A stretch of 64,000 nucleotides of DNA from Nannocystis bainbridge (GTDB taxonomy: Bacteria; Myxococcota_A; Polyangia; Nannocystales; Nannocystaceae). The stretch covers positions 2,528,001 through 2,592,000 of the forward strand of contig NZ_JAQNDL010000003.1 in the NCBI RefSeq assembly GCF_028368995.1, read 5' to 3'. The translations under genes and the position numbers were made by a program. Shown in pieces: positions 1,591 to 31,904 of this stretch; within the stretch, counting starts at the first letter, position 1; every line of letters begins with the position of its first letter. Under the pieces are notes generated by a model. It saw nothing but the letters and a program-made list of their open reading frames with translations, did no database searches and was not told the DNA's origin.

Positions 1591-1715
1591 TGTGGGTTAG
1601 CGCACCCACCTGCCAAGTCCTCGCCGCCACGCGCGTGTGCTGCAAGCCTCGCGTGGCGCGCCGGTCTCGTGTTCGCGCTTGCTGAGGCGCCGGCCCGGGC
1701 GCAAGATTCCGCGCC

Positions 1716-2519: not shown

Positions 2520-2520
2520 C

Positions 2521-2563
2521 CTGTCCTCCGGGCCAGGTGGAAGTCACCTGGCCCTCGGGACAG
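2521..2563. terminator. Hairpin between convergent genes, built from two copies of the 14-bp motif
   Basis: CTGTCC-tccg-GGCCAGGTG-gaagt-CACCTGGCC-ctcg-GGACAG directly after the stop at 2519. Confidence 0.5.
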
Positions 2564-2622
2564 TCTGTCCGCCGACCGCGGCGCCCCCGATGTCCCGGCG
2601 GCGCCGCTTCGCGCGTCCGGCC

Positions 2623-5049
2623 TCAGCCCGGCAGCGGGCACTTGCCGGTGCCGCTGGCCGAGTTGTTGTCGACCCGGCACTCGTGCCACGCGTGCATCGG
2701 CATCGCATCGTCGACGACCACCCACACCACCGACGACCCGTCGAGCACCGCGGGCGGCGCGTTGGGCAGCAGCAGCGTCACGTCCTCGGCCTCGGCCGGG
2801 TACAGCACCTTGGTCGTCAAACCCGAGCCGAGCAGCACGCCGCCGTCGTTCGGGTCGCCCTCGAAGAAATGCACCGGCACGCCGGCCGGCACCGACGCCT
2901 CGCCGATGTTGCGCACGCGCCCGACCAGCCCGTACGGGTCGGGCTCGCACGCCAGACGCAGGTCGACGATCAGGTCGGGCGCCGCGAACTCGCCCTCGGG
3001 CTGGACGTTCTGGCGGTAGTTGTTGAGCCCGGGCGTGAGCCAGTTGGTCGGCTCGATCGCGGGGATCTTCCCGCCCTCCTCGGTGTTCGTGACGTGATAC
3101 GCGTGCTGGTTCCACACCCGCCGCGTCCGCACCCACTGGCCCTCGCTGTCGCCGAAGATCCGCACGCCCGTCTGCTTGGTCCCGTCGCAGGTGATGCCCG
3201 AGTAGTTGTTCGAGACCGCGACGATGTCCGCGTGGCCGTCGCTGTCCACGTCGGCGATCACCGGGTACTCCTGCAGCGTGCCGGTGGTATTGCAAGTGCT
3301 CCACAGCTCCTCGCCGTCGCTGCCGCGGTAGACGCGGAGCCGGATCTCGTCGGAGTAGACCACCTCCGCGCTGCCGTCGCCGTCGAAGTCGAACACCGAC
3401 GAGCCCGTCGACGCCGACGAGCAGTCGCGCGTCTGCTTGATCCACATGAACGTGTCCGCGTCGGCCACGTTCGGGTCCATCAGCTTCTTGCCGTCGAACA
3501 CCGCGTAGCCGACCCCGCCCGCGACCGCCACGTCGGGCGTGCCGTCGCCGTTGAAGTCGGCGATCGTCGGCGGCCCGCCGCCGCGCAGGTTGCCGGCCGA
3601 GCCCTCCGGGCACAGTTCCGGCGACAGCGCCCCGTTGATGTCGATGCCGGCGCGGAGGATCTGCGCCCCGCCCATCGCCTGCGGGTCGTGGCGCCACAGC
3701 AGCAGGTGGTGCGGCACCGTCATGCTGTTGGCGTTCGAGATCACCGCGACCTCCGGCTTGCCGTCGAGGTCGAGGTCGGCGATCGCGGGATAGGTCCCCT
3801 CGAGCCCGGTCGTCGCCAGCACCCCGCCGGCCGCGTTGAAGGCCCCGCGCGAGTAGACGATGTCGAGCTGCCCGTCGACATCGAGGTCGGCCGCCATGTT
3901 GTGACCGCCGACGCCGAGCATCAGCTTCGTCGCCCCCGTCGCTCCGTCGAGCACCGCGCCCGGCACCAGGATCTCCGGCTTGCCGTCCTGGTCGAGGTCC
4001 GCGATCGACACGAAGTTACAGGCCCCGCTGTACGTCGAGGTCCACAGCGGCTGGCCGTCGCCGGTGAACGCCCGCGTCTTGCCGCTCGACGAGCAGGCCA
4101 CCAGCTCGTTGCCCGGCAGGCCGTCGATGTCAGCGCCGGCCAGCTCGCGCCCGGGCGCGATCGGGTCGACCATGCCGGCGTTGTAGCTCCACTTCTCGAC
4201 GATCTCGCCGCCGACGATCGAGATCACGCGGATCGTCCCGTTGTCCTGATAGACCCCGCCGACGAACGTCGTGAACGCGATCTCCGGGATGTCGCGCTCG
4301 TCGACGATGCTGTCGCAGTTGTCGTCGTCGAGCTGGACCACGATCGGCGTCATCATCACCGTGCCGGCGTCCCAGTGGTACTTGACCGACGGCGTGAACT
4401 GGCCCGCGCCCGGGATGTACTGACAGGATGCCAGGCAGGTCGGCGGATCGCCCGGGTCCTCGCCCTCCAGGCACTTCGGCGGCGCCGGCAGGCACTTGCC
4501 CGTGGCCGGCACGATCCCGCCCATGCACATCTCGTCGCCGCCCATCATCGCCGGCTCGCCGAGGCTGTACTCGCAGTACTCCTCGTCGGCGCACTCGCTG
4601 GCGTCGATGCACGCATCGCCCGGCGTCACGCAGGCGTTGAACGAGCAGATGTCGCCCTGCGGGCAGCACACCTCGCCGCACGCGTGGTCCTCGTCCGGGC
4701 AGCACTCGGCGCCGATGCACACGCCCCCCTTCGCCTCGCAGTCGGCCGGGCACACCGCGCCGCCCGTCGTCTCGCTCGTGCTGCCCGTCGTCGGCTCGCC
4801 GGTCGTGGTCGACTCCGCCGCCGTCGTCGCCTCGCTCGCCGACTCGCTCCCGCCGCCCTCGCTCGTCGAAGTCGGCGCCGTCTCCGTCCCCGTCGGCGCC
4901 GTCTCCGTCCCCGTCGGCGCGCCCGTCCCGGTCGTCGGACCGCCCGTCATCGTCAGCCCCGCGCTGTCCGTCCGCCCGTCGTCCCCACAACCGCTCAGCG
5001 CCCCGCACAGCGCCGCTGCCCAGCCGATTCCCCGCAAGCTCGTCGTCAT
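2623..5049 (-). CDS. FG-GAP/VCBS repeat lipoprotein with Thr-rich stalk, Cys-rich region and C-terminal CARDB-like domain
   Basis: Signal and lipobox MTTSLRGIGWAAALCGALSGC. Multiple ADLDxDGxPE repeats. VRNIG CARDB-like motif. Confidence 0.85.
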   Translation of the reverse strand: MTTSLRGIGWAAALCGALSGCGDDGRTDSAGLTMTGGPTTGTGAPTGTETAPTGTETAPTSTSEGGGSESASEATTAAESTTTGEPTTGSTSETTGGAVCPADCEAKGGVCIGAECCPDEDHACGEVCCPQGDICSFNACVTPGDACIDASECADEEYCEYSLGEPAMMGGDEMCMGGIVPATGKCLPAPPKCLEGEDPGDPPTCLASCQYIPGAGQFTPSVKYHWDAGTVMMTPIVVQLDDDNCDSIVDERDIPEIAFTTFVGGVYQDNGTIRVISIVGGEIVEKWSYNAGMVDPIAPGRELAGADIDGLPGNELVACSSSGKTRAFTGDGQPLWTSTYSGACNFVSIADLDQDGKPEILVPGAVLDGATGATKLMLGVGGHNMAADLDVDGQLDIVYSRGAFNAAGGVLATTGLEGTYPAIADLDLDGKPEVAVISNANSMTVPHHLLLWRHDPQAMGGAQILRAGIDINGALSPELCPEGSAGNLRGGGPPTIADFNGDGTPDVAVAGGVGYAVFDGKKLMDPNVADADTFMWIKQTRDCSSASTGSSVFDFDGDGSAEVVYSDEIRLRVYRGSDGEELWSTCNTTGTLQEYPVIADVDSDGHADIVAVSNNYSGITCDGTKQTGVRIFGDSEGQWVRTRRVWNQHAYHVTNTEEGGKIPAIEPTNWLTPGLNNYRQNVQPEGEFAAPDLIVDLRLACEPDPYGLVGRVRNIGEASVPAGVPVHFFEGDPNDGGVLLGSGLTTKVLYPAEAEDVTLLLPNAPPAVLDGSSVVWVVVDDAMPMHAWHECRVDNNSASGTGKCPLPG

Positions 5050-5571
5050 CGGGCGGCAGGGTACAGACGCCCGCGCGAGCCGAGCAAGCCGCCGCGTGCG
5101 TCTCGTTGCGCGCCGCGTCCGCTGCGCGGCTCGATAACGATCGACGAAATCCACGTCACGCCGCGACCCCGCGACTTCCTCGTCGCTTTTAACATGTCCT
5201 GAAGGACAGGACATGTCCTGCGAATCCGCAGCGCGCCGCCGACCTGTCCCGCGCCGCAGCGCCGACGTAACCGATCGAACTACATGTCCGCAAAGACAGG
5301 TCCATCCGCAAGGTCGGAGCCGGGCCGGCGGACCCGCCGCCGTACGATCTTCCGTCGCGCACCCATCCGGACGGTCCCCCCGCGCCCCCTCGCCTCGTCG
5401 GGCCCCGACTGGCAGAGAGGCGGCCCTTTCGTAACTTTTGGCGTGCGCAACTGCGCCGCGCGATTCGACGCCGGCGCACGTCTGCTGGTGCCCCGAGACC
5501 ACACTCTGTTATTGAAGAGGGGTTTCTGGGCGACAGTTCTTTTCGCGGCCTGGCGCCGGCGTGGAGGAGTC

Positions 5572-7944
5572 ATGAAGCGATCCATCATCCGAATCAGCCA
5601 TCATTGTGCATCTGTCCTTTCGACCATGTGGATAGTGACCGCTTGCGGTCAGGGCGATCCGACGGCCACCGCGGGTGCGACCGACGGCTCGACTACCAGC
5701 GAGGTCCAGACCGGTACGACCGCCCCGGCCTCGACCGGCGTCATCCCGACCACCGGCACGCCGACGACGACGACGACGATCGGCATGAGCGGCACCGTCG
5801 ATCCGACCACCGACGGTCCTTCGACCACGACGACCACCACCACCGGCGAGACCGACAGCACCACCGGCGAGCCCGACCCCGTCTGCGGCGACGGCCAGCT
5901 CGACCCGGGCGAAGCCTGCGACGACGGCCCCGACAACGGCGCTGGCAAGCCGTGCAACATGCAGTGTCAGGCCAACACTTGCGGCGACGGCGATCAGGGC
6001 CCCGGCGAGGAGTGTGACGACGGCGCCGACAACATGGACACCAATAGCTGCAAGGCCGACTGCACCGACAACGTCTGCGGCGACGGGGCCGTCGGGCCGG
6101 GCGAGGGCTGCGACGACGGCAACGAAGACGATAGCGACGACTGTACCAATTCCTGCGCGCTCGCCAGCTGCGGCGACGGTATCGTCGCCCCGACCGAGCA
6201 GTGTGACGACGGCAACGCCGACAACAGCGACGATTGCACCGACACCTGCACCGACGCCACCTGCAGCGACGGTCACGTCCAGGACAGCGTCGGCGAACAG
6301 TGCGACGACGGCAACGCCAACGCCGACAACGCCGCCTGCACCACCAGCTGCAAGCTCAACGTCTGCGGCGACGGGGCCCTCTACAACACCGGCGACGGCA
6401 TCGAGGAGTGCGACGACGGCGTCGACAACGGGGCAGGCAAGGCCTGCAACGCCGGGTGTCAATTCAACACCTGCGGCGACGGCGACCAGGGCCCCGGCGA
6501 GGCCTGCGACGACGGCGACCTCGATCCGGGCGACGGCTGCTCGGCCACTTGCAAGCTCGAGGAGTGCGGCAACGGCACCCTCGATCCGGGCGAGGACTGC
6601 GACGACGGGCAGAACGGCGATGACGACGACGGCTGCACCGACAGCTGCGAGCTCCCCGCCTGCGGCGACGGCATCCATCAGCCCAACGAGGGCGAGCAGT
6701 GCGACTTCGGCGGCAGCAACAGCGACAGCGGCGCCTGCACCGTCGCTTGCAAGCTCGCCACCTGCGGCGACAGTTTCGTCCAGGCCAACGTCGAGCAGTG
6801 CGACGACGGCGTCAACAACGGCCCCGGCAAGCCGTGCAACGCCATGTGCAAGACCAACATCTGCGGCGACGGCGACAAGAGCCCCAGCGAGGCCTGCGAC
6901 GACGGCAACCAGAGCAACGACGACGCCTGCACCAACGTCTGCAAGCTCGCCACCTGCGGCGACGGCTTCAAGCAGCCCGGCGAGCAGTGTGACGCCGGCA
7001 TCGGCAACAGCAACACCGGCGTCTGCACCCTCGCCTGCAAGAACCCGATCTGCGGCGACACCTTCGTCCAGCCCGGCAAGGGCGAGCAGTGCGACGACGG
7101 CAACCTGTCCGACAACGACGCCTGCCTCAACACCTGCAAGTCCGCCAGCTGCGGCGACGCCATCGTCCATCAGGGCGTGGAGCAGTGCGACGACGGCAAC
7201 GCCAACAACAACGATTTCTGCAACAATCAGTGTCTGCTGCCGACCTGCAGCGACGGCGTCAAGAACGGCAGCGAGAGCGACGTCGACTGCGGCGGCTCGT
7301 GTGGCAAGTGCGGCCTCGGCGGCTCGTGCCAGAACAACAGCGACTGCGCCCAGCAGGCCTGCATCAACAACGTCTGCGCATTGACCAAGAGCTGCAAGGA
7401 GCTCAAGCAGGCCAACCCCGCGCTCGGCGACGGCGACTACACCATCGATCCGGACGCCGGCGGCGCGGTCCAGCCGCTCGTCGTCCATTGCGACATGGAC
7501 GCCGGCGCCTGCGGCTACACCATGGTCCGCTTCAACGATAACGCGCTCGGCAGCCACCAGGACGCCTACACCAACAAGTGCGCCGCCGTCGGCATGGAGG
7601 TCATCGTCCCGCGGACAAAGGTCCACGCCACCGCGATCGTCGGCTGGAACGGCGGCGTCGTGCCCAACCTCTACAACGTGTTCCCCAAGAACAACGGCGC
7701 CCAGGCCATCACCAACTGGACCGGCCGCTGCCAGGGCCAGCCGTGCACGTTCTGGATGACCGACAACGCCCAGGGCAACGTCTCGTGCATGGCGCCGCCC
7801 TCGTTCGAGCCCAACGGCGACAACAGCGTCAATTATCGCATCTACAAGTGGAACGAGGGCTGCGGCATCGAGGGCGGCTGGAACGACGCCAACGCCTCGG
7901 TCATGTACACCGGCTGGGTGGTCTGCTCGACCAACGACTGCTGA
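5572..7944 (+). CDS. Myxococcus cysteine-rich repeat (DUF4215-type) lipoprotein with fibrinogen-like hinge and variable C-terminal domain
   Basis: GGAGG RBS. VTAC lipobox. Many CGDG...GEeCDDGN repeats. SCKELK...GDYTIDPD...VHCDMD. Confidence 0.85.
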   Translation: MKRSIIRISHHCASVLSTMWIVTACGQGDPTATAGATDGSTTSEVQTGTTAPASTGVIPTTGTPTTTTTIGMSGTVDPTTDGPSTTTTTTTGETDSTTGEPDPVCGDGQLDPGEACDDGPDNGAGKPCNMQCQANTCGDGDQGPGEECDDGADNMDTNSCKADCTDNVCGDGAVGPGEGCDDGNEDDSDDCTNSCALASCGDGIVAPTEQCDDGNADNSDDCTDTCTDATCSDGHVQDSVGEQCDDGNANADNAACTTSCKLNVCGDGALYNTGDGIEECDDGVDNGAGKACNAGCQFNTCGDGDQGPGEACDDGDLDPGDGCSATCKLEECGNGTLDPGEDCDDGQNGDDDDGCTDSCELPACGDGIHQPNEGEQCDFGGSNSDSGACTVACKLATCGDSFVQANVEQCDDGVNNGPGKPCNAMCKTNICGDGDKSPSEACDDGNQSNDDACTNVCKLATCGDGFKQPGEQCDAGIGNSNTGVCTLACKNPICGDTFVQPGKGEQCDDGNLSDNDACLNTCKSASCGDAIVHQGVEQCDDGNANNNDFCNNQCLLPTCSDGVKNGSESDVDCGGSCGKCGLGGSCQNNSDCAQQACINNVCALTKSCKELKQANPALGDGDYTIDPDAGGAVQPLVVHCDMDAGACGYTMVRFNDNALGSHQDAYTNKCAAVGMEVIVPRTKVHATAIVGWNGGVVPNLYNVFPKNNGAQAITNWTGRCQGQPCTFWMTDNAQGNVSCMAPPSFEPNGDNSVNYRIYKWNEGCGIEGGWNDANASVMYTGWVVCSTNDC

Positions 7945-8166
7945 GCGTGGGTCGCCGCGCCGCCCCGCTCCAGGGGTGGCGCGGCCTCGATCGAGCCGTG
8001 ACACTCGACCGCCACGAGCCGACGAATGTCCGCAGTCGCGGCGAACCTTGTCCCCGCAATTACCTGGTCGTCCGCTGACGACATTTGTCCGGCGAAAACC
8101 TCGCGCGACCTCGCGCGCCCGGCCGCAGCTTGACCCGGCTGCAGACCCGGGCGCACCCTCGGGCCA

Positions 8167-9147: not shown

Positions 9148-10263
<1,116 letters not shown>

Positions 10264-10393
10264 GTCCCGCCGCGGCCACCCGGCCCCGCCCGCGGCGATC
10301 GCTCGCGGACCCGCCCCCATCGGCCCGTCCGGGCGCCCCGGCGACCCGCCCTTGCGCGCCGCGGACGAGCCCCGGCATCATGGGCCCGCACGC

Positions 10394-11134
10394 ATGCACA
10401 GCCGTCACTTGATGCTCGAGAGCCCCGCCATGGGGCGCAAGGTTCACCTGTGGTGTTATGGCCATTTCGGCCCGCCCGTCATCGTCTTCCCCTCGGCCGC
10501 CGGCTTCGCCCACGAGTGGGATCGCCACGGCATGTTCGAGGTCCTCGGCCCGCTCGTGCGCGCCGGCAAGGTCAAGTTCTACTGCCCCGAGAGCAACGTC
10601 TCCCAGGTGTGGACTGACAAGGAGAGCTCGATCGCCGCGCGCATGGAGAAGCACCGCGCCTACGAGTCCTTCATCCTCGACACCCTCGTGCCGTTCATCC
10701 GCGAGGACTGCAACTGGCCGACCGCGCCGATGACCGCCGTCGGCTGCAGCCTCGGCGGCACCTACGCCGCCCTGTTCGCGCTCAAGTACCCCGAGACCTT
10801 CCGCCAGGTGCTGTGCATGAGCGGCCGCTACCTGACCACCGAGCTGACCGGCAAGCACAACGACGCCGAGCTCTACTTCAACAACCCGCTCGCCTTCGTC
10901 CCCGGCCTGCGCGGCGAGCACCTCGAGCGCCTGCGCCGCAACACCCACCTCACCCTCGTGTGCGGCCGCGGGGCCTACGAGGAGGGCTGCATCGAGGAGA
11001 CCATCGCCCTCGGCCAGCTGCTGCGCGAGAAGGACATCCCCAGCGTCACCGACATCTGGGGCCGCGAGTCGCGCCACGAATGGGACTGGTGGCAGCGCCA
11101 GGTCGCCGTCCACCTGCCGCGCCTGCTCGGCTGA
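10394..11134 (+). CDS. Putative esterase, alpha/beta hydrolase fold
   Basis: GCSLGG nucleophile elbow; HEWDWW C-terminal His motif; YGHFG.PV.VFP N-terminus. Confidence 0.8.
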   Translation: MHSRHLMLESPAMGRKVHLWCYGHFGPPVIVFPSAAGFAHEWDRHGMFEVLGPLVRAGKVKFYCPESNVSQVWTDKESSIAARMEKHRAYESFILDTLVPFIREDCNWPTAPMTAVGCSLGGTYAALFALKYPETFRQVLCMSGRYLTTELTGKHNDAELYFNNPLAFVPGLRGEHLERLRRNTHLTLVCGRGAYEEGCIEETIALGQLLREKDIPSVTDIWGRESRHEWDWWQRQVAVHLPRLLG

Positions 11135-27906: not shown

Positions 27907-28212
27907 CCGGCCGCTGAATCCGCCCGCGACCTCGCCCTCGATGACCGAGCGCGAGGTCGCGTCGCGACTGCGACCGACCCTCGCGCGGATCAGCGCCGCC
28001 TCTCGAGCACGAGTTGAACTCGAATGAGAGCGATATCGAGGCGCGCGGGGCTGCCCGCCCCTTGCCATCGCCCGCCGAGGGACCATCTTCGCACATGCGT
28101 GGTCCTCGTTCGCGAGTCCGCGGCCCCGGCGTCCGGGCCCAGCGATACGGCTCGATACATTCCGATTCATTAGGATAGGAAATCGCCCCAGCTTCTCCCC
28201 GAGGTTCGCAGG

Positions 28213-28270
28213 CAACCTGTTGAAATCATGCATGTTGGCCACCCGATTGACGGCTGGCCTGTTGCGTGCT
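28213..28270 (+). promoter_or_regulatory. Candidate sigma54 (-24/-12) promoter with upstream IHF-like site
   Basis: TGGCCTGTTGCGTGCT (GG-N10-GC) at 28255-28270. TTTCAACAGGTTG on the minus strand at 28213-28225 is one mismatch from WATCAANNNNTTR. Confidence 0.5.
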
Positions 28271-28284
28271 CAAGTGGGGTCAAG

Positions 28285-28625
28285 GACCTGCGTCATGGCA
28301 CCGATCGCCGTCACCACGAAAGATACGCACCAGCCCGTCGCCAGAGATGCGATGGGTAAGCGTATTCAAACGTGGCGACGTGGTCGCGGGTGCTGAAGCA
28401 GAGCACTGCAACCGTCCGCGACCACGAAGTCGGCGAGCGTCCAACTGGCGGCAAAACGAAGCGCCGCCAGACGCTCAGTTCGCGGCGCGTCGATCGTTCG
28501 TCTCCTCCGCGAGCTTCTTCCAGGTCGCCCTCGCTTCCGGGTTCGGAAGACCGGGGCCACACCTCGGGCCTGCGTCGAAAGACGCTGGCATCGGCCAACT
28601 CGGCCGGATTCGCGTCGTCGACGCG
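28285..28625 (+). ncRNA. Unassigned ~340-nt multi-helix structured RNA or leader preceding the tRNA array
   Basis: At least 10 helices visible by eye, a closing helix GACCTG/CAGGTC and a GAAA tetraloop; no credible ORF. Confidence 0.65.
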
Positions 28626-28626
28626 C

Positions 28627-28644
28627 GTTCTTTTACAACTGAAT
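28627..28644 (+). promoter_or_regulatory. rRNA-operon-type boxA antitermination-like element
   Basis: GTTCTTTTACAACTGAAT resembles rrn boxA (GYTCTTTRAMAA); preceded by a hairpin at 28611-28625. Confidence 0.55.
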
Positions 28645-28665
28645 CGTGGAAGAGGAAGAGAAGAT

Positions 28666-28734
28666 TGCGTCGTCGGGCGGCCCCGACCCTCGGCTCTGAC
28701 CCGAGGCTTGCTGGATCGACACCAGCCGGCGCAA
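28666..28734 (+). tRNA. tRNA-Gln(CUG), compact and atypical
   Basis: TGCGTCG/CGGCGCA; CTCGG-CT-CTG-AC-CCGAG; T-loop ATCGACA. Confidence 0.75.
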
Positions 28735-28776
28735 TTTCAGTCGCAGGCCCGACCTATCGTCGGCCTGCGCAATCGA

Positions 28777-28847
28777 GGTGCCGTGGCCGAGTGACAGGCA
28801 GCGCTCTCATAAGGCGCCATACGCAGGTTCGTTACCTGCCGGCACCA
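28777..28847 (+). tRNA. tRNA-Met(CAU) (Met versus Ile2 not resolved)
   Basis: GGTGCCG/CGGCACC; GCGCT-CT-CAT-AA-GGCGC; T-loop TTCGTTA. Confidence 0.8.
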
Positions 28848-28863
28848 TCCTCGATGACAAATT

Positions 28864-28936
28864 GGGCTGCGAGCGAAGGCGCTGGCGAACCCTTGCAAGG
28901 TTCGTGTTACATCGGGGGCGGTACCCGAGCGGTCCA
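28864..28936 (+). tRNA. tRNA-Ala(UGC), atypical
   Basis: GGGCTGC/GCGGTCC with G3:U70 and A73; CGAACC-CT-TGC-AA-GGTTCG; T-loop GGCGGTA. Confidence 0.75.
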
Positions 28937-29020
28937 TACGCGGCGTAACGGCGCCTGTTACGTCACAGCGAGCGTTCTGCACACACACGGCGGTCGGAGC
29001 CGTGCTCGCACCGACAACCT

Positions 29021-29108
29021 GGAAGCGTCGTCCAATGGTAGGACAGCAGACCGTTAATCTGCCTGGGCAATCGCCCACTCGATGCAAGTTCGATCCTTGC
29101 CGCTTCCG
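29021..29108 (+). tRNA. tRNA-Asn(GUU) with long variable arm
   Basis: GGAAGCG/CGCTTCC, G73; GCAGA-CC-GTT-AA-TCTGC; V-arm TGGGC-AATC-GCCCA. Confidence 0.8.
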
Positions 29109-29113
29109 CTCCT

Positions 29114-29186
29114 GGGCCGATGGGACAGATGGATGTTCAGCGGGTTCTTACCCCGCCTCAGGCTGGATCGTTACCAGCTCGGCTCG
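29114..29186 (+). tRNA. tRNA-Lys(CUU)
   Basis: GGGCCGA/TCGGCTC; GCGGG-TT-CTT-AC-CCCGC; T-loop ATCGTTA. Confidence 0.8.
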
Positions 29187-29220
29187 TATCTCTTATTTAT
29201 TCTATAATCATTAGCAAACT

Positions 29221-29308
29221 GGGCTCCGGCCAGGACGGGAATGGGGCGGACTTTTAATCCGCATGCCGGGCGCTTGCGCTCGACCGAGTTCGACTCTCGG
29301 GGAGCTCT
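29221..29308 (+). tRNA. tRNA-Lys(UUU) with long variable arm
   Basis: GGGCTCC/GGAGCTC; GCGGA-CT-TTT-AA-TCCGC; V-arm CGGGCG-CTTG-CGCTCG. Confidence 0.8.
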
Positions 29309-29355
29309 TATATCTTCAATAACACTCTCGTTCGCGGCTCGAATGGGCCGCTCTT

Positions 29356-29429
29356 GCCGCCGTAGGGGAGTTGGAGTCTCCGCCTCGTTGTCAGCGAGGA
29401 GATCGCGGGTTCGAGTCCCGCCGGTGGCG
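29356..29429 (+). tRNA. tRNA-Asp(GUC) copy 1
   Basis: GCCGCCG/CGGTGGC, G73; CCTCG-TT-GTC-AG-CGAGG; TTCGAGT. Confidence 0.9.
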
Positions 29430-29471
29430 TTGTTCATTGATATCGATATCTCGGCCCGTACGGGCCGATTT

Positions 29472-29545
29472 GCCGCCGTAGGGGAGTTGGAGTCCTCGCC
29501 TCGTTGTCAGCGAGGAGATCGCGGGTTCGAGTCCCGCCGGTGGCG
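29472..29545 (+). tRNA. tRNA-Asp(GUC) copy 2
   Basis: Near-identical to copy 1. Confidence 0.9.
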
Positions 29546-29577
29546 TCGATCCATCTCTGCCAGCAGGGCCATTCTTT

Positions 29578-29651
29578 GCCGTCGTAGGGGAGCTGGAGTC
29601 CCCGCCTCGTTGTCAGCGAGGAGATCGCGGGTTCGAACCCCGCCGGTGGCG
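29578..29651 (+). tRNA. tRNA-Asp(GUC) copy 3
   Basis: Near-identical to copies 1 and 2. Confidence 0.9.
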
Positions 29652-29658
29652 CTCGAGC

Positions 29659-29727
29659 AGGGGCGCGCGTGGTGTGCTACGCGAGGCTTTGAACCTCGTA
29701 AGGAGAGTTCGAACCTCTCCGCCCCTT
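29659..29727 (+). tRNA. tRNA-Gln(UUG), compact
   Basis: AGGGGCG/CGCCCCT; CGAGG-CT-TTG-AA-CCTCG; TTCGAAC. Confidence 0.75.
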
Positions 29728-29800
29728 ACCCCTCGGATTTATCTTCGACTCTGATGAATCTTCCACCCGACGTGATTCGTATCTGAATCATCGAACATTC

Positions 29801-29871
29801 GCCGATGTGGCCTAGTGACTGGGCGTCACCCTTCCAAGGTGAAGACGCGGGTTTGATTCCTGCCATCGGCT
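29801..29871 (+). tRNA. tRNA-Gly(UCC)
   Basis: GCCGATG/CATCGGC, U73; TCACC-CT-TCC-AA-GGTGA; T-loop TTTGATT. Confidence 0.85.
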
Positions 29872-29885
29872 CTCTGTGAACCTCT

Positions 29886-29957
29886 GCAGTTCAGGTCTTG
29901 TCAGTGAGACGCGTGGTTGCCTACCACGAGGGCCCGGTGCGACCCCGGGGAGCTGCT
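29886..29957 (+). tRNA. tRNA-Gly(GCC)
   Basis: GCAGTTC/GAGCTGC, U73; CGTGG-TT-GCC-TA-CCACG; T-loop TGCGACC. Confidence 0.78.
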
Positions 29958-29969
29958 CTACCGTGAATA

Positions 29970-30037
29970 GCCCTTGCTCCAAGGGGGCGCGCTGCTTGGT
30001 ATGTAGCGATGTCCGGGAGCGTTACCCGGCGAGGGCT
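29970..30037 (+). tRNA. tRNA-Thr(GGU), reduced D-arm
   Basis: GCCCTTG/CGAGGGC; GCTGC-TT-GGT-AT-GTAGC; T-loop AGCGTTA. Confidence 0.7.
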
Positions 30038-30047
30038 TTTGAATCTT

Positions 30048-30120
30048 GCCCCCCAAGCATCAATGGTGATGCGCCGCCCTCGTAGCGCGGAATCGCCGGG
30101 TTCGATCCCCGGGAGGGGCT
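30048..30120 (+). tRNA. tRNA-Thr(CGU)
   Basis: GCCCCCC/GAGGGGC; loop CT-CGT-AG; TTCGATC. Confidence 0.8.
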
Positions 30121-30135
30121 ACCTTTTGAAAGGCC

Positions 30136-30207
30136 GGTCCACGAGCTCCCCGGTCGAGCGCCTGCCTGACATGCAGGAGGTACGAGGTTCGATTCCTCGA
30201 TGGACCA
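30136..30207 (+). tRNA. tRNA-Val(GAC)
   Basis: GGTCCAC/ATGGACC, A73; CCTGC-CT-GAC-AT-GCAGG; TTCGATT. Confidence 0.85.
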
Positions 30208-30230
30208 CTCGTTTCCAGTCTGGACAATCT

Positions 30231-30302
30231 GCTCTCGTCGTCTAATAGATAGGGCCCAGGTCTACGGAGCCTGCGATGGTGGTGCGATTCCACCCGAGAG
30301 TA
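30231..30302 (+). tRNA. tRNA-Arg(ACG)
   Basis: GCTCTCG/CGAGAGT; CAGGT-CT-ACG-GA-GCCTG; T-loop TGCGATT. Confidence 0.82.
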
Positions 30303-30322
30303 CTCATTTTGATAAAGACAAT

Positions 30323-30394
30323 GGCCTCGAAGTGTATGAGATTGCACGCGACCGTCCGAAGGTCGTGGACCGGGTGCGACTCCCGGCGGGGCTG
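30323..30394 (+). tRNA. tRNA-Arg(CCG)
   Basis: GGCCTCG/CGGGGCT; CGACC-GT-CCG-AA-GGTCG; T-loop TGCGACT. Confidence 0.8.
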
Positions 30395-30415
30395 CCGGGC
30401 CTGCTTGCGGGTCAC

Positions 30416-30488
30416 GCTCGCGTAGCTCAGCTGGACGAGCATTGGTCTTCTATACCATCGGACGCAGGTTCGAACCCTGCCGCGAGTA
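30416..30488 (+). tRNA. tRNA-Arg(UCU)
   Basis: GCTCGCG/CGCGAGT; TGGT-CT-TCT-AT-ACCA; TTCGAAC. Confidence 0.87.
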
Positions 30489-30514
30489 TCTTCGTTCGTT
30501 TGAATCGTTCATCC

Positions 30515-30586
30515 AGGGGAGAGGTGTTGATGGTGACATGCGGGACTCCAACTCCTGCGAACCGGGTTCGAGTCCCGGCTCCCCTG
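30515..30586 (+). tRNA. tRNA-Trp(CCA)
   Basis: AGGGGAG/CTCCCCT, G73; CGGGA-CT-CCA-AC-TCCTG; TTCGAGT. Confidence 0.87.
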
Positions 30587-30616
30587 TCTTGCATGGGCCC
30601 GGTGCTTCCGGGCCGT

Positions 30617-30682
30617 GGAGCCCGTTCTGGTGGAACGTCGCGGCGCTGCCGCGGTCGTCGGTTCGAGTCCGGCGGGGCTTCT
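30617..30682 (+). tRNA. Minimal tRNA-like RNA with GCU (Ser) triplet, no variable arm; identity uncertain
   Basis: GGAGCCC/GGGCTTC; GTTC-TGGTG-GAAC; TCGCGGC-GCT-GCCGCGG; canonical T arm GTCGG-TTCGAGT-CCGGC. Confidence 0.5.
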
Positions 30683-30683
30683 T

Positions 30684-30754
30684 TGGGCTAAAGCTCGTGA
30701 GAAGAGCGGTGCTCTGTGACAGCACAGGAGAGGGGGCGGAACCCTCTAGCCCAC
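30684..30754 (+). tRNA. tRNA-His(GUG) without encoded G-1
   Basis: TGGGCTA/TAGCCCA, C73; GTGCT-CT-GTG-AC-AGCAC; T-loop GGCGGAA. Confidence 0.78.
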
Positions 30755-30776
30755 CCGCGCGCCAACCGGCGCGCAC

Positions 30777-30848
30777 GCCCGCGTAGCTCAACGGAAGAGC
30801 GGCGTTCTCACACATCGCAGGTCGGGGGCTCGACACCCTCCGCGGGCA
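30777..30848 (+). tRNA. tRNA-Val(CAC)
   Basis: GCCCGCG/CGCGGGC, A73; loop CT-CAC-AC; T-loop CTCGACA. Confidence 0.8.
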
Positions 30849-30870
30849 ACGAACGTCTTCGTAACAACCT

Positions 30871-30941
30871 GGCCCTGTAGTTCAACGGCAGAACCCCGCG
30901 CTCTCTACGCGGAAACCGGAGATCGTCACTCCGCAGGGTCA
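30871..30941 (+). tRNA. tRNA-Glu(CUC)
   Basis: GGCCCTG/CAGGGTC; CCGCG-CT-CTC-TA-CGCGG; T-loop ATCGTCA. Confidence 0.8.
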
Positions 30942-30947
30942 TTCGTA

Positions 30948-31020
30948 CGAGGTGAAGGCTTGATGGTAAGCCGCATGCTCGGGGAGCATGAGATTGTGCG
31001 TTCGACTCGCACCACCTCGA
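30948..31020 (+). tRNA. tRNA-Pro(GGG)
   Basis: CGAGGTG/CACCTCG (C1-G72, A73); CATGC-TC-GGG-GA-GCATG. Confidence 0.83.
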
Positions 31021-31042
31021 TTGTTTTTATTTCAACAATCAT

Positions 31043-31116
31043 CGGAGACGGATCGCGGAGTGCGAGGCGTGTTTCGGGAACACGTAGGCGGGGTGCGACG
31101 CCCCGGTCTCCGACCA
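31043..31116 (+). tRNA. tRNA-Pro(CGG), encoded CCA
   Basis: CGGAGAC/GTCTCCG, A73 then CCA; CGTGT-TT-CGG-GA-ACACG; T-loop TGCGACG. Confidence 0.8.
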
Positions 31117-31162
31117 ACCCCTGCCCCGGGCCGCGGCCAAGCGCTGCGGCCCGGGCTCTCTC

Positions 31163-31233
31163 CCGCGTCCGTGGACGGTGCCACACCTCGTCTGATAAGC
31201 GAGCCCTTCGGAGTTCAACTCTCCGGGCGCGGA
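31163..31233 (+). tRNA. tRNA-Ile(GAU)
   Basis: CCGCGTC/GGCGCGG, A73; CTCGT-CT-GAT-AA-GCGAG; TTCAACT. Confidence 0.78.
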
Positions 31234-31277
31234 TTTCGATTCTCTTCCTCATCCACGATCCGCGTCGTGCCCCGGGC

Positions 31278-31904
31278 TCATGGCCCGGGGCGCGGCGCCA
31301 GGTAGCCGCCGACGAGGGCGATGAGCTCCTCGACGAGGCGGGGGTCGGACAGCCGCTCGGGCTGCTCGAGCACGCACGTGAGGATCACCCACTCGATCGC
31401 GCTGACGATCACGAACGCGGCCAGCTCCGGGTCGACCGGCCGCAGCTCGGCGCTGCGGGCGATCAACGCGTCGCGCAGGCGCTCGCGGCCCGCGTGCACG
31501 TGGGCCCGCAACGCCTCGACGCGACCGACCCGCGGCACGTGCAGCAGCACCGCGCGGAAGAACTCCAGATCGCCGCGGTAGAGGTCGATCGCGGCGCGCA
31601 GGCCGTCGCGCATCTGCTCGGCGAAGGAGCCGCCGTCGGGCGCCGGGACCTCGAACACGCGCTCGATGCCGCGGGTGAACTTGCGGTCGAGCGCCGCCGC
31701 GAGCATCGCCTCCTTGCTCGGGAAGTACTGGTAGAGCGAACCGACGCTGACCCCGGCGACCCGCGCGATCTCGTTGGTCGTCGTCGCCTCGAGGCCGCGC
31801 TCGCCGAGCACGCGGACGGCGGCGTCGAGCAGCGTATCGACCATCTGCTGGCTCCGCGCCTGGCGCGGCTGCTTGCGCGGGGTATGGCGAATCGGCGAAG
31901 TCAT
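31278..31904 (-). CDS. TetR/AcrR family regulator
   Basis: PRQARS; TTNEIARVAGVSVGSLYQYFPSK HTH. Confidence 0.92.
   Translation of the reverse strand: MTSPIRHTPRKQPRQARSQQMVDTLLDAAVRVLGERGLEATTTNEIARVAGVSVGSLYQYFPSKEAMLAAALDRKFTRGIERVFEVPAPDGGSFAEQMRDGLRAAIDLYRGDLEFFRAVLLHVPRVGRVEALRAHVHAGRERLRDALIARSAELRPVDPELAAFVIVSAIEWVILTCVLEQPERLSDPRLVEELIALVGGYLAPRPGP

Follow-up and report, generated by a model that had tools for sequence, protein, structure and literature searches.

The 64-kb stretch of DNA from the soil myxobacterium Nannocystis bainbridge analysed here (hereafter, the window) contains a dense array of 26 tRNA and tRNA-like genes, all on the plus strand, which is conserved in gene order in six Nannocystis genomes and is under purifying selection. 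With moderate confidence, we class the array among the long tRNA arrays (‘L-arrays’), as a supernumerary operon that is selectively maintained and has become fixed in the Nannocystis chromosome.

At default settings, ARAGORN predicts 23 tRNA genes within positions 28665–31233 and none in the rest of the window, whereas the relaxed search, which an earlier note on this DNA had recommended, adds the Thr(GGT)-like gene for a total of 24. Two further blocks of 72–73 nt, 97%–98% conserved across the six genomes, fold as cloverleafs with the hallmarks of tRNA-Ala and tRNA-His (Table 1), bringing the count to the 26 genes on one strand that the earlier note had proposed. Its description of these tRNAs as atypical also holds, given that only 14 of the 26 elements reach the Rfam tRNA gathering score (12 fall below) and that the Rfam tRNA model misses the Ala-like and His-like elements even with the cutoff loosened to E ≤ 10, as does its observation of clustering by amino acid (Lys-Lys, three Asp, Gly-Gly, Thr-Thr, three Arg and Pro-Pro). 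Around 15 amino acid identities are covered, those without an array tRNA being L, S, F, Y and C. Pro(CGG) is indeed the sole gene of the array with an encoded 3′ CCA; however, only 6 of the 69 housekeeping tRNA genes of this genome encode CCA, so that its absence is normal here rather than a sign of atypicality. The region 27907–31277 can be called protein-free, as previously claimed: it holds no ORF of at least 100 aa with GC3 of at least 0.85, and the six ORFs scanned have no Pfam match.

Table 1. Features of the tRNA array and its upstream region (positions in the window).
Feature	Position	Strand	Evidence and remarks
Four direct repeats CGATAC/CGATAC/CGATTC/GGATAG, 10–11 nt apart	28143–28180	+	Conserved in six-genome alignment
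IHF-like site CAACCTGTTGAAA	28213–28225	+	Alignment; GTTGAAATCA invariant in 6/6 genomes
Sigma-54-type −24/−12 element CTGGCCTGTTGCGTGCT	28254–28270	+	GG-N10-GC in 6/6 genomes
Structured leader RNA, ~380–400 nt	28262–28664	+	RNAalifold −175 kcal/mol, 134 pairs
Candidate 33-codon leader ORF (MAPIAVTTKDT...RGRGC)	28296–28397	+	AAGGA 8 nt upstream of ATG
GC-rich hairpin CGCGTCG-T-CGACGCG, boxB-like or terminator stem	28611–28625	+	Compensatory change in N. radixulma
U-rich boxA-like run GTTCTTTTACAAC	28627–28640	+	10/11 match to GYTCTTTAANA in N. bainbridge
Left arm of long-range stem	28643–28662	+	20 nt, 95% complementary to right arm
tRNA-Gln(CTG), U1:A72, T-loop ATCGACA	28665–28735	+	ARAGORN
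tRNA-Met(CAT), T-loop TTCGTTA	28777–28847	+	ARAGORN; Rfam 50.7 bits
tRNA-Ala(TGC)-like, G3:U70, A73, T-loop GGCGGTA	28864–28936	+	0.98-identity block; RNAalifold cloverleaf; missed by ARAGORN and Rfam
Hairpin and acceptor/T-arm-like minihelix, 3′ end ACC	28936–29013	+	Conserved; lost along with Asn in N. radixulma
tRNA-Asn(GTT), long extra arm, G73	29021–29109	+	ARAGORN
tRNA-Lys(CTT), T-loop ATCGTTA	29113–29187	+	ARAGORN
tRNA-Lys(TTT), long extra arm	29221–29308	+	ARAGORN
tRNA-Asp(GTC), three copies, G73	29355–29430, 29471–29547, 29578–29652 (span 29355–29652)	+	ARAGORN; 1–2 copies in other genomes
tRNA-Gln(TTG), A1:U72, 4-nt D-loop	29659–29727	+	ARAGORN
tRNA-Gly(TCC), U73	29801–29872	+	ARAGORN; 61.5 bits; N. 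punicea copy split by IS630-type insertion
tRNA-Gly(GCC), U73, T-loop TGCGACC	29886–29958	+	ARAGORN
tRNA-Thr(GGT)-like, minimal D arm, T-loop AGCGTTA	29969–30038	+	ARAGORN relaxed
tRNA-Thr(CGT)	30048–30120	+	ARAGORN
tRNA-Val(GAC), A73	30136–30208	+	ARAGORN
tRNA-Arg(ACG), T-loop TGCGATT	30231–30303	+	ARAGORN; two copies in four other genomes
tRNA-Arg(CCG), T-loop TGCGACT	30323–30396	+	ARAGORN
tRNA-Arg(TCT), most canonical of array	30416–30488	+	ARAGORN; 60.1 bits
tRNA-Trp(CCA), G73	30514–30588	+	ARAGORN
87-nt tRNA-like element called Thr(GGT), long extra arm	30595–30681	+	ARAGORN; N. bainbridge only
tRNA-His(GTG)-like, C73, without encoded G-1, T-loop GGCGGAA	30684–30756	+	0.97-identity block; cloverleaf; missed by ARAGORN and Rfam
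tRNA-Val(CAC), T-loop CTCGACA	30777–30848	+	ARAGORN; TAC in three genomes, TGC in N. exedens
tRNA-Glu(CTC), T-loop ATCGTCA	30870–30942	+	ARAGORN
tRNA-Pro(GGG), C1:G72, A73	30948–31020	+	ARAGORN
tRNA-Pro(CGG), C1:G72, A73, encoded CCA, T-loop TGCGACG	31043–31116	+	ARAGORN
tRNA-Ile(GAT), A73	31163–31233	+	ARAGORN
Right arm of long-range stem	31240–31259	+	20-bp pairing with left arm

The gene order is identical in N. punicea, N. exedens, N. pusilla, N. radixulma and Nannocystis sp. RBIL2, but the array was not found in 62 genomes from 16 other genera of Nannocystaceae; the family-wide synteny that the earlier note had suggested checking thus extends throughout the genus only. The six genomes are not near-identical strains, since the proteins flanking the array are just 72%–95% identical between species. 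Nevertheless, the tRNA bodies are ~97% identical, with conserved blocks at identities of 0.93–0.98 in the six-genome alignment, whereas the spacers have diverged and accumulated indels; over the whole array, mean column identity, with gaps scored as differences, is 0.82 for tRNAs versus 0.54 for spacers. Stem cells with letters number 2229: 2125 show no change, 68 show a one-sided compatible change and 7 a compensatory one, and in 29 the pairing is broken. Substitutions are rarer at paired (2.7%, 122/4484) than at unpaired positions (9.4%, 317/3363). By our own reading of the per-genome ARAGORN lists, anticodons are constant in every genome holding the gene, save for Val (CAC/TAC/TGC). The combination of conserved bodies and diverged, indel-bearing spacers refutes neutral decay in relatives, the fate against which the earlier note had set its proposal. 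However, a 1.7-kb IS630-type insertion sequence splits Gly(TCC) within the N. punicea operon, and N. radixulma has a 0.7-kb insertion and has lost Asn, so that neither every member nor the continuity of the unit is essential. The 87-nt element at 30595–30681 is absent from the five other genomes and from related environmental contigs.

The array tRNAs are only 56%–76% identical to their housekeeping counterparts of the same amino acid specificity, and the anticodon loop equals that of the housekeeping isoacceptor in just 6 of the 23 ARAGORN genes. Canonical T-loops are found in 13 of these 23 genes, as opposed to 69 of 79 elsewhere in the genome, where the 10 exceptions are odd calls of 78–97 nt. 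T-loops with G55 or A54 could hamper elbow formation or use by EF-Tu and the ribosome. Judged by the rules known from E. coli, identity hallmarks (Ala G3:U70 and A73; Pro C1:G72 and A73; a weak 1:72 pair in Gln) and discriminator bases (G73 in Asp, Asn and Trp; U73 in Gly; C73 in His; A73 in Val, Ile and Met) agree with the anticodons. There are lineage-specific oddities, such as C33 in Asn and pyrimidine 37 in Glu of N. bainbridge, or the N. exedens tRNA in which an Ala anticodon (TGC) sits on a Val-like body and which is probably not chargeable.

The array is bracketed by the two arms of a long-range stem, as previously noted, which pair in all six genomes with duplex energies of −32 to −43 kcal/mol, compared to −14.9 ± 3.0 (minimum −26.4) in 1000 shuffles. 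One G-C pair is swapped to C-G in N. radixulma, a compensatory change. The left arm resembles the 16S processing-stem arm of the same genome: together with its upstream flank, it matches the rrn leader at 21 of 26 aligned positions by our own count, including an exact 11-mer, and the rrn leader arm itself pairs with the sequence following 16S at −61 kcal/mol. Of the rRNA-operon-like architecture proposed earlier, the bracketing stem and its rrn-like arm hold up, whereas the boxA-like element is weak. The array is probably transcribed as a single RNA with an end-pairing processing stem. The inverted repeat might also act at the DNA level.

Upstream of the array, a sigma-54-type element matches the consensus at 10 of 14 positions in each of the six genomes and is preceded by a putative IHF site, which we take to resemble the IHF consensus, and by four direct repeats, candidate sites for an activator (enhancer-binding protein); the 11-Mb genome has just two further sites with a run of at least three such repeats. 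A semi-strict sigma-54 pattern, fitted after the site had been seen so as to include it, has 19 genome-wide matches, 10 of them in noncoding-like DNA. The genome holds RpoN and ~30 activator genes. No activator gene lies near the array. A sigma-70 scan of the promoter region found nothing; a weak sigma-70-like arrangement, TTGACG (28247) and TCAAGT (28275) with a spacing of 17, overlaps the sigma-54-type element and is missing in one genome. That the sigma-54 promoter drives the array is, in our estimate, close to an even call, falling slightly short of it.

Covariation bears out the earlier claim of a structured RNA ahead of the tRNAs: the leader has 13 compensatory pairs, compared to 3.7 ± 1.6 in shuffles (0 of 500 reach 13) and 0–3 in slid controls, and matches no Rfam family at E ≤ 1. 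The candidate leader ORF is open in all six genomes (N. radixulma carries an indel that keeps the frame), its variable columns are distributed 3/2/10 over the codon positions, and its last codons fall within the 5′ arm of a conserved stem. Only 1 of its 33 residues belongs to L, S, F, Y or C, a content equally low in 1.4% of the ATG-started 33-codon windows of the genome; the putative peptide thus uses almost solely amino acids served by the array. The boxA-like run is the only such site adjoining a hairpin in the genome, but its standing as a boxA is weakened because the critical C4 is replaced by G in the five other genomes, the N. bainbridge rrn leaders do not carry a GYTCTTTAANA-type motif, and the hairpin with the TTCTTTT that follows it was flagged as terminator-like by a scan.

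Several other explanations have to be weighed. It is unlikely that these are ordinary extra tRNA genes, constitutively expressed and adding to the pool of a very large (11–13 Mb), GC-rich genome, with the leader and stem as processing aids. The anticodons (CTG, CTT, CGT, CCG, CAC, CTC, CGG, GGG, GCC, GAC and GGT) are GC-adapted, in contrast to the U34-rich set of the Anabaena array, and, to judge by the rrn-like arm, the transcript may be processed together with growth-related RNA; yet all 23 anticodons called by ARAGORN recur elsewhere in the N. bainbridge genome, the sequences and elbows are very unlike those of the housekeeping set, the array region has no promoter of the sigma-70 TTGAC-N17-TACAnA type found at the rrn and Leu-cluster genes of this genome, and the conserved 400-nt leader and upstream repeats look regulatory. 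Less likely again is a role chiefly outside ribosomal decoding, in which the tRNAs would donate aminoacyl groups to tRNA-dependent enzymes of secondary metabolism or the cell envelope, or would be decoys (sponges) that draw off tRNA-targeting toxins. Specialised non-proteinogenic tRNAs are known in other bacteria, and the non-canonical T-loops, conserved in 13 of the 26 elements, recall them. Toxins that cut tRNA T-loops exist (PMC9086364), and in N. exedens and Nannocystis sp. RBIL2 the gene immediately upstream of the array encodes a PAAR-RHS polymorphic toxin; however, N. bainbridge, N. punicea and N. radixulma lack this neighbour, whose toxin domains have no family match, and a set of ~15 identities with conserved anticodons and mostly normal U33/R37 loops is more in keeping with decoding than with service as dedicated donors.

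Lower still we place the notion that the array came in on a non-autonomous mobile cassette, with the 20-bp repeats as its terminal inverted repeats, acting as DNA instead of as an RNA processing stem. L-arrays are thought to spread horizontally (PMC8421152, PMC4758250), the left flank of the locus varies between species, and terminal repeats would likewise show co-variation of the arms. Nevertheless, the 20-mer has no further location in the 11-Mb genome at up to two mismatches, no target-site duplication was seen, the promoter and leader are conserved outside the repeats and yet always travel along, the left arm matches that of the rrn processing stem, and the arms tolerate U-A to U-G changes. 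Least credible by far is that the array derives from an integrated phage or ICE tRNA cluster and is now decaying and without function: tRNA scores are poor for many members, and two species carry insertions and a deletion, but the selection on bodies and stems relative to spacers already contradicts decay in genomes this divergent, and the anticodons are conserved. Moreover, there is no array-level match in 50,697 phage or 72,556 plasmid records, and the ten neighbouring proteins scanned (PhoX, PMT_2-like, DUF7379-like, DUF4785, PA14, TetR, cupin, MBL hydrolase, alpha/beta hydrolase and catalase) are products of ordinary chromosomal genes, with no match to integrase, HNH, RtcB or phage families, as the earlier note had stated; downstream synteny (cupin, MBL, hydrolase and catalase) is kept in four genomes.

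Under the preferred reading of a maintained supernumerary operon, a promoter under tight control would drive the whole unit as one precursor, the best-conserved candidate being the sigma-54 element with the IHF-like site and the four repeats. Transcription would pass through the folded leader, ending in the hairpin and U-rich run, which may serve as a Nus-type site or attenuator, and the precursor ends would pair in a helix patterned on that by which the cell processes its own 16S rRNA. Cleavage of this helix by RNase III, followed by RNase P and 3′ trimming, would free the tRNAs, to be completed by the CCA-adding enzyme.

The mature tRNAs could then serve as an alternative decoding set, distinct in structure, which the cell would bring into play when translation or its normal tRNA pool is impaired, possibly as a backup against anticodon nucleases. 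Such a stress-backup role is tentative and is drawn by analogy with the Anabaena trn operon, the precedent for a reserve set induced under compromised translation: that L-array is silent and is induced 100- to 1000-fold by ribosome-targeting antibiotics (PMC8421152). Collectively, the conserved array, the folded leader and the rRNA-operon-like end stem point to a regulated second set of tRNAs in Nannocystis.

The Nannocystis array is a conserved, redundant and structurally distinct set of tRNAs maintained by selection, with a covarying leader in front of it and a stem that joins its two ends. The 23 tRNA genes that ARAGORN calls in the window share the plus strand; a Thr(GGT) gene is gained under relaxed settings, and two further blocks of 72-73 nt, one Ala-like and one His-like, match the called tRNAs in conservation (0.97-0.98 identity in the six-genome alignment) and are cloverleafs by RNAalifold, which brings the total to the 26 elements claimed in the earlier note and the density to 9-10 genes per kb (23 by ARAGORN, up to 26, in 2.57 kb). 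The description of these elements as atypical is borne out by the Rfam tRNA model (RF00005; gathering threshold, 29 bits): no more than 14 of the 26 reach it (39-61 bits), ten are called by ARAGORN alone, and two by neither ARAGORN nor the Rfam model, which does not report the Ala-like and His-like elements even at E ≤ 10. That a single gene encodes CCA also agrees with our analysis, Pro-CGG alone having CCA directly 3'; because only 6 of the 69 housekeeping tRNA genes of the genome encode CCA, its absence is no peculiarity of the array. The region, described in the same note as protein-free, indeed holds no ORF of at least 100 aa bearing the GC3 signature of the genome, and the six ORFs scanned in it have no Pfam match; its G+C content is 58-65% vs 71% for the genome (11.05 Mb in five contigs, with the window at 2528001-2592000 of contig C2). 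Mobile genes were likewise said to be missing nearby, and the ten scanned neighbour proteins are ordinary chromosomal ones with no HNH, integrase or RtcB among them, namely PhoX, PMT_2-like, DUF7379-like, DUF4785 and PA14 proteins upstream, and TetR, cupin, MBL-fold hydrolase, alpha/beta hydrolase and catalase in convergent orientation downstream.

Coordinates of the array, its control region and related loci (N. bainbridge features in window positions unless a contig is named)
Feature	Sequence	Position	Strand	Remarks
Block CCCCTTGCCA...CATGTTCGCC	window	28058-28095		upstream of the direct repeats; kept in five genomes, not in N. radixulma
Candidate sigma-54 element	window	28254-28270		CTGGCC-N-GTGCT
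Leader	window	28262-28664		
Candidate leader ORF	window	28296 (ATG)		33 codons; AAGGA 8 nt upstream
GC hairpin	window	28611-28625		ends the leader
Hairpin + U-run	window	28611-28640		
Left stem arm	window	28643-28662		pairs with right stem arm
Array	window	28665-31233	+	extent of ARAGORN-called genes
Ala-like element	window	28864-28936	+	anticodon TGC, G3:U70 pair, A73
Thr(GGT)	window	29969-30038	+	
87-nt element	window	30595-30681	+	N. bainbridge only, absent from the other five genomes
His-like element	window	30684-30756	+	anticodon GTG, C73
Val gene with varying anticodon	window	30777-30848	+	
Right stem arm	window	31240-31259		pairs with left stem arm
TetR-family regulator gene	window	31278-31904	-	between right stem arm and cupin gene; N. 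bainbridge only, absent from the other four syntenic genomes; 3' end overlaps GC hairpin 31262-31298
rrn leader	C1	4457856	+	processing-arm motif identical in all three rrn leaders
rrn leader	C1	2068059	-	
rrn leader	C5	70468	-	
Small tRNA cluster (L019)	C2	2356727-2357509		Pro-Leu-Leu-Tyr-Leu-Leu-Leu
Small tRNA cluster (L020)	C1	3057230-3057513		Cys x3
Small tRNA cluster (L021)	C3	526095-526398		Ser x3
IS630-type transposase	N. punicea (L013)	9251-10946		inserted into tRNA-Gly(TCC); 377 aa, DDE_3 and HTH domains
Val orthologue	N. exedens (L016)	10437-10508		anticodon TGC (Ala)
PAAR-DUF6531-RHS toxin gene	N. exedens (L016)	1712-6706		1664 aa
PAAR-DUF6531-RHS toxin gene	Nannocystis sp. RBIL2 (L014)	1405-6801		1798 aa
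25-nt leader match	'Alcanivorax sp.' record (L023)	7921-7945		

Compared with the best housekeeping tRNA of matching amino acid, the array tRNAs reach only 56-76% identity, and every anticodon called by ARAGORN in the array is also present elsewhere in the genome. Since the members are just ~60-75% identical among themselves, the Asp copies excepted, the array is an old, diverse set rather than a recent amplification; recent internal duplication accounts for the Asp genes only. The anticodon set is GC-adapted and includes no Leu, Ser, Tyr, Phe or Cys gene, and the 7-nt anticodon loop is common to the housekeeping tRNA with the same anticodon in 6 cases and different in 17 of the 23. Under the textbook identity rules, which come mostly from E. 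coli, the acceptor features agree with the anticodons: C1:G72 with A73 is found in the two Pro tRNAs and U1:A72 or A1:U72 in those for Gln, the discriminator is G73 in Asp, Asn and Trp, U73 in Gly, C73 in His and A73 in Val, Ile and Met, and the Ala-like element bears the G3:U70 hallmark of tRNA-Ala. The T-loops set the array apart, with TTCRA in 13 of the 23 ARAGORN-called members vs 69 of the 79 calls elsewhere in the genome, where the ten exceptions, calls of 78-97 nt, are probably false. Altered T-loops are found in 13 of the 26 elements and include the types TGCGA (Gly-GCC, Arg-ACG, Arg-CCG and Pro-CGG), ATCG (Gln-CTG, Lys-CTT and Glu) and GGCGGWA (the Ala-like and His-like elements).

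Three smaller same-strand clusters elsewhere in the genome together supply Leu, Tyr, Cys and Ser, which are missing from the array; none has a Phe gene. Ordinary tRNA scores are the rule among their genes, but the Rfam list lacks two of the seven from the Leu cluster and one of the three for Ser. The promoter of the Leu cluster, TTGACC-N17-TACATA, is of the rrn type, and its leader is ~330 nt long. A link between the array and these clusters was rejected, given that their members look canonical and that the Leu cluster has an rrn-type promoter.

A search of genome contigs with a 24-mer of the leader retrieved N. punicea FL3, N. exedens DSM 71, N. pusilla Na p29, N. radixulma and Nannocystis sp. 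RBIL2, and per-genome ARAGORN runs place the array in all five relatives with the same gene order, Gln-Met-(Ala)-Asn-Lys-Lys-Asp-Gln-Gly-Gly-(Thr)-Thr followed by Val-Arg-Arg-Arg-Trp-(His)-Val-Glu-Pro-Pro-Ile. Copy number varies across the genomes for Asp (one to three) and Arg-ACG (one or two). The array of N. radixulma has additional Thr-TGT, Arg-CCT and Phe-GAA genes, is without Asn and the minihelix element preceding it, and carries a 0.7-kb insertion between Val and Glu (L017), in which we noted an ORF of ~150 aa on the strand opposite the array, with a signal-peptide-like start. In N. punicea, the IS630-type insertion splits the operon 1.7 kb upstream of the remaining 12 ARAGORN-called genes, which are still conserved. 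Downstream, the cupin, MBL, hydrolase and catalase genes are syntenic in four of the five relatives; the upstream side differs. Across the family, the synteny that the earlier note suggested checking holds within Nannocystis but does not extend to the 62 genomes of 16 other genera, none of which has the locus: the leader and the first third of the array were found in 6 of 73 genomes, all of the genus Nannocystis, and the five genus members without it are represented by fragmented assemblies (4.5-9.1 Mb, 64-88% complete). No array-level match occurs among phage (50,697) or plasmid (72,556) records or in viral contigs, blastn against the phage and plasmid sets giving single tRNA-Val matches or nothing. 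Four environmental contigs, probably DNA, carry related Nannocystis-like arrays, and their similarity begins at 28247, as the DNA upstream of there differs. Two sets of short leader matches were discarded, one in an 'Alcanivorax sp.' record (25 nt only in otherwise unrelated DNA, a coincidence) and the other a 22-mer in four metagenome contigs with no tRNA on them (L028-L031, taken as chance matches); such exact matches to the most conserved 22-25 nt of the leader in unrelated, tRNA-less DNA (L023, L028-L031) may coincide with a conserved coding motif.

On the variable upstream side, N. exedens and Nannocystis sp. RBIL2 have a PAAR-DUF6531-RHS polymorphic toxin gene directly upstream of the array, 1-2 kb from the leader. 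The C-terminal domains that follow the DPLGL core differ between the two toxins and have no counterpart in Pfam. The N. pusilla copy is apparently frameshifted, and other genes take this place in N. bainbridge, N. punicea and N. radixulma. A toxin adjoining a spare tRNA set may be meaningful or may be a coincidence of the variable flank.

Selection on the array is evident from the six-genome alignment, in which the conserved blocks are the tRNA bodies (0.93-0.98 identity) and the spacers have diverged, with indels. When the N. bainbridge cloverleafs were projected onto this alignment, 2125 of the 2229 stem cells with letters were unchanged, 68 had a one-sided change that still pairs, 7 were compensatory and 29 broken, and the substitution rate was 2.7% at paired vs 9.4% at unpaired positions. 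According to the per-genome ARAGORN lists, the anticodons are identical in every genome holding the gene, except for one Val gene, whose anticodon is CAC in N. bainbridge, TGC in N. exedens and TAC in three other genomes; conservation extends to the unusual T-loops. The N. exedens orthologue has an Ala anticodon in a body that is otherwise unchanged and has no G3:U70, a shift that probably leaves the tRNA unchargeable or miscoding. With flanking proteins 72-95% identical, the six genomes are not near-identical strains. Given this divergence, the conserved bodies and stems and the diverged spacers, the neutral decay in relatives named in the earlier note as evidence against its proposal is not seen; bodies, pairing, anticodons and odd T-loops have all been kept.

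In each of the six genomes, the two arms that bracket the array form a duplex of 20-23 bp (-32 to -43 kcal/mol); in N. bainbridge, its -32.8 kcal/mol compares with -14.9 ± 3.0 in 1000 shuffles (minimum -26.4). A G-C pair has become C-G in N. radixulma, a compensatory swap, and the stem tolerates several changes from U-A to U-G. The 20-mer of the arm has no further copy in the genome at up to 2 mismatches and so is not a multi-copy transposon end; nor was the arm motif found in viral contigs. By a count made by eye, the left arm and its upstream flank ACAACTGAATCGTGGAAGAGGAAGAG agree with the three rrn leaders AAAACTGGATAGAGGAAGAGGAAGCC at 21 of 26 aligned positions, including a shared exact 11-mer that is the sole blastn-short match (E 0.26), and the rrn leader segment forms a duplex of -61 kcal/mol with the sequence just after the 16S rRNA. 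The rrn-like stem arms proposed earlier are therefore well supported, the left arm resembling the 16S leader arm of the same cell. (ARAGORN finds Ile/Ala at the C5 operon only, so that the two rrn operons on C1 may lack spacer tRNAs or differ in assembly.) As in rRNA operons, a conserved helix of about two turns arises in the six genomes from sequences 5' and 3' of the structural RNAs, and a hairpin lies just upstream of a U-rich, boxA-like run; unlike them, the stem encloses tRNAs only, has 20-23 bp vs ~35 bp for 16S, and follows a promoter candidate that differs from the TTGAC-N17-TACAAA of the rrn operons. We infer that RNase III would cleave the long-range stem.

For the promoter, a sigma-70 type was rejected, as a scan found none and the likely -35 element TTGAC (28247) is missing in N. 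radixulma. CTGGCC-N-GTGCT is kept in all six genomes with GG and GC 11 nt apart, a sigma-54-type -24/-12 arrangement agreeing in each of the six with 10 of 14 positions of the consensus. A semi-strict pattern fitted to include this site has 19 matches in the genome, of which 10 lie in noncoding-like DNA and some adjoin activator genes. An invariant IHF-like CAACCTGTTGAAA lies ~60 nt upstream of the transcription start predicted at about 28281, and four CGATAC-type repeats, spaced by 10-11 nt, at about -100 to -140, comparable repeat runs being present at only two other places in the genome. RpoN and about 30 sigma-54 activators are encoded in the genome, no activator gene being found within the window. 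Although fitted after the site had been seen, the putative sigma-54 element is the best-conserved promoter candidate.

The leader is conserved to the same degree as the tRNAs and matches no Rfam family at E ≤ 1. RNAalifold predicts 134 pairs, 13 of them with compensatory change; column shuffles give 3.7 ± 1.6 (none of 500 reaches 13) and slid controls 0-3. As the fold was itself derived from this alignment, the comparison leans somewhat in its favour. The terminal GC hairpin, with a compensatory change in N. radixulma, is followed by GTTCTTTTACAAC. The boxA-like element of the earlier note can be read in N. bainbridge, where GTTCTTTTACA matches 10 of 11 positions of the gamma-proteobacterial consensus GYTCTTTAANA given by Baniulyte et al. 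(2017), including the C at position 4 described there as critical; the other five genomes have G at that position (GCTGTTT(T/C)ACA). With the critical C missing in five of the six species and the motif absent from the genome's own rrn leaders, which carry CCCTGAAAACTGG at its place, a firm boxA call was rejected. A terminator scan flags the same hairpin and U-run, which may be either boxB/boxA or a terminator-like site.

The leader can also be compared with the trp, his and leu operons, which are controlled by leader-peptide transcription attenuators. The candidate leader ORF is open in all six genomes, with an in-frame indel and a shifted stop in N. radixulma, and its variable columns in the five closer genomes number 3/2/10 by codon position. 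Only 1 of its 33 residues, the final Cys, is from the group L, S, F, Y and C, so 32 of the 33 codons are served by the array, and the diverged N. radixulma peptide likewise has one such residue, a Ser; equally low values are reached by 1201 of 86,652 (1.4%) ATG-started, stop-free 33-codon windows in the genome and by 91 of 10,849 (0.84%) ATG ORFs of 28-40 codons. The ORF is rich in codons rare for this genome, and its 3' end falls within a conserved stem, in the 5' arm. Ribosomes would translate it at the very start of the transcript and, if the matching housekeeping tRNAs were cut, depleted or uncharged, would stall and let the leader refold, whereupon the hairpin and U-run would fail to stop RNA polymerase and the array would be transcribed. 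Such a leader would be an attenuator that senses translation and lets the spare tRNA set regulate itself, atop a sigma-54 switch. The likeness to the trp/his/leu attenuators lies in a short ORF with a ribosome-binding site opening a folded leader that closes with a hairpin and then a U-rich run; unlike theirs, the candidate peptide draws on 13-14 amino acids, matching the array repertoire, with no single one enriched, and the hairpin lies 215 nt past the stop codon. The ORF is a post-hoc candidate in a region that is also structured RNA, a lead to follow, and we consider the attenuator unlikely. If true, attenuation of the trp/his kind would here respond to many amino acids and guard a back-up decoding system.

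The array falls within the definition of a tRNA array unit given by Tran et al. (2015, PMC4758250), 20 or more tRNA genes with a density of 2 per kb or above, and has the structure of the L-arrays described by Santamaria-Gomez et al. (2021, PMC8421152) as long, same-orientation and non-periodic, with supernumerary redundant isodecoders: all genes are on the plus strand, members are ~60-75% alike and anticodons redundant. L-arrays are portrayed there as sporadic, horizontally acquired and tied to plasmids, phages, ICEs or homing endonucleases; the Nannocystis tRNAs look foreign, yet they occupy one locus with conserved downstream synteny in a single genus. Shared with L-arrays and the PCC 7120 trn operon are at least 20 same-strand, non-periodic tRNA genes at ~10 per kb (PMC8421152, PMC4758250, PMC10272220) and redundant isodecoders added with no new anticodons, odd or pseudo-like members, a patchy phylogenetic distribution and conserved repeats in the promoter region. 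Unlike that precedent, the array is chromosomal, at one locus genus-wide and under strong purifying selection, with a 400-nt structured leader and the end-to-end stem. The Anabaena L-array is described as silent, induced 100-1000-fold by ribosome-targeting antibiotics and aiding survival (PMC8421152), and its repressor TrcR as cyanobacteria-restricted (PMC10272220). Gene order and content differ from that operon: the pCC7120delta order Asp-Glu-Ser-Glu-Tyr-Ser-Arg-Phe-Asn-Gln-Gln-Leu... is unrelated, no plasmid record matches in sequence, the Anabaena operon adjoins an HNH gene whereas the ten scanned Nannocystis neighbours include no HNH, integrase or RtcB, and, in contrast to the Anabaena set, Leu, Ser, Tyr, Phe and Cys are missing and the anticodons are GC-adapted. 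By gene order and sequence, the Nannocystis array is not a member of the cyanobacterial trn lineage.

The arrays of phages and mycobacterial plasmids are viewed as counter-defence against tRNA-cleaving systems in the reports consulted (PMC10264068, PMC11555353, PMC12803027); the Nannocystis array likewise duplicates host anticodons and has altered loops, but its carrier is the chromosome of a free-living predator. The literature searched on tRNA arrays or clusters in myxobacteria and on Nannocystis tRNA contains no description of this array, although the species lists of PMC8421152 and PMC4758250 may include Nannocystis. Set apart from the arrays in the literature read are the genus-wide single-locus inheritance under strong selection with no mobile-family match in the ten scanned neighbours, the conserved non-canonical T-loops in half of the members, the 400-nt covarying leader and what appears to be a processing-type stem around a tRNA-only operon, copying the cell's 16S stem arm.

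Taken as a whole, the locus would yield one regulated, probably sigma-54-dependent transcript, with the leader gating read-through into the array; the transcript ends would pair and be cut in the manner of rrn operons, after which RNase P and 3' trimming would free the tRNAs, and the CCA-adding enzyme would complete them, as needed for most tRNAs of the cell. The products may take over as a second decoding set at times when translation or the normal tRNA pool is impaired, a role suggested by analogy with Anabaena, by the altered loops, which recall phage tRNAs that are described as escaping tRNA-cutting defences (PMC10264068), and by the existence of T-loop-cutting toxins (PMC9086364). Against it, some members may be unchargeable, and in two species the array bears insertions or has lost genes.

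Long tRNA arrays are usually held to be sporadic, horizontally moving and mostly cryptic, with a demonstrated physiological role in Anabaena only. Here, an array has apparently become a fixed part of the chromosome throughout a genus of soil bacteria that are predatory and produce antibiotics, its bodies, anticodons and non-canonical T-loops being under strong purifying selection and accompanied by an elaborate control and processing region of their own. Nannocystis thereby offers a clean, culturable system for asking what purpose a second tRNA set serves, whether tRNAs with a G55 or A54 elbow can function in translation and whether a tRNA operon can borrow the logic of the rRNA processing stem.
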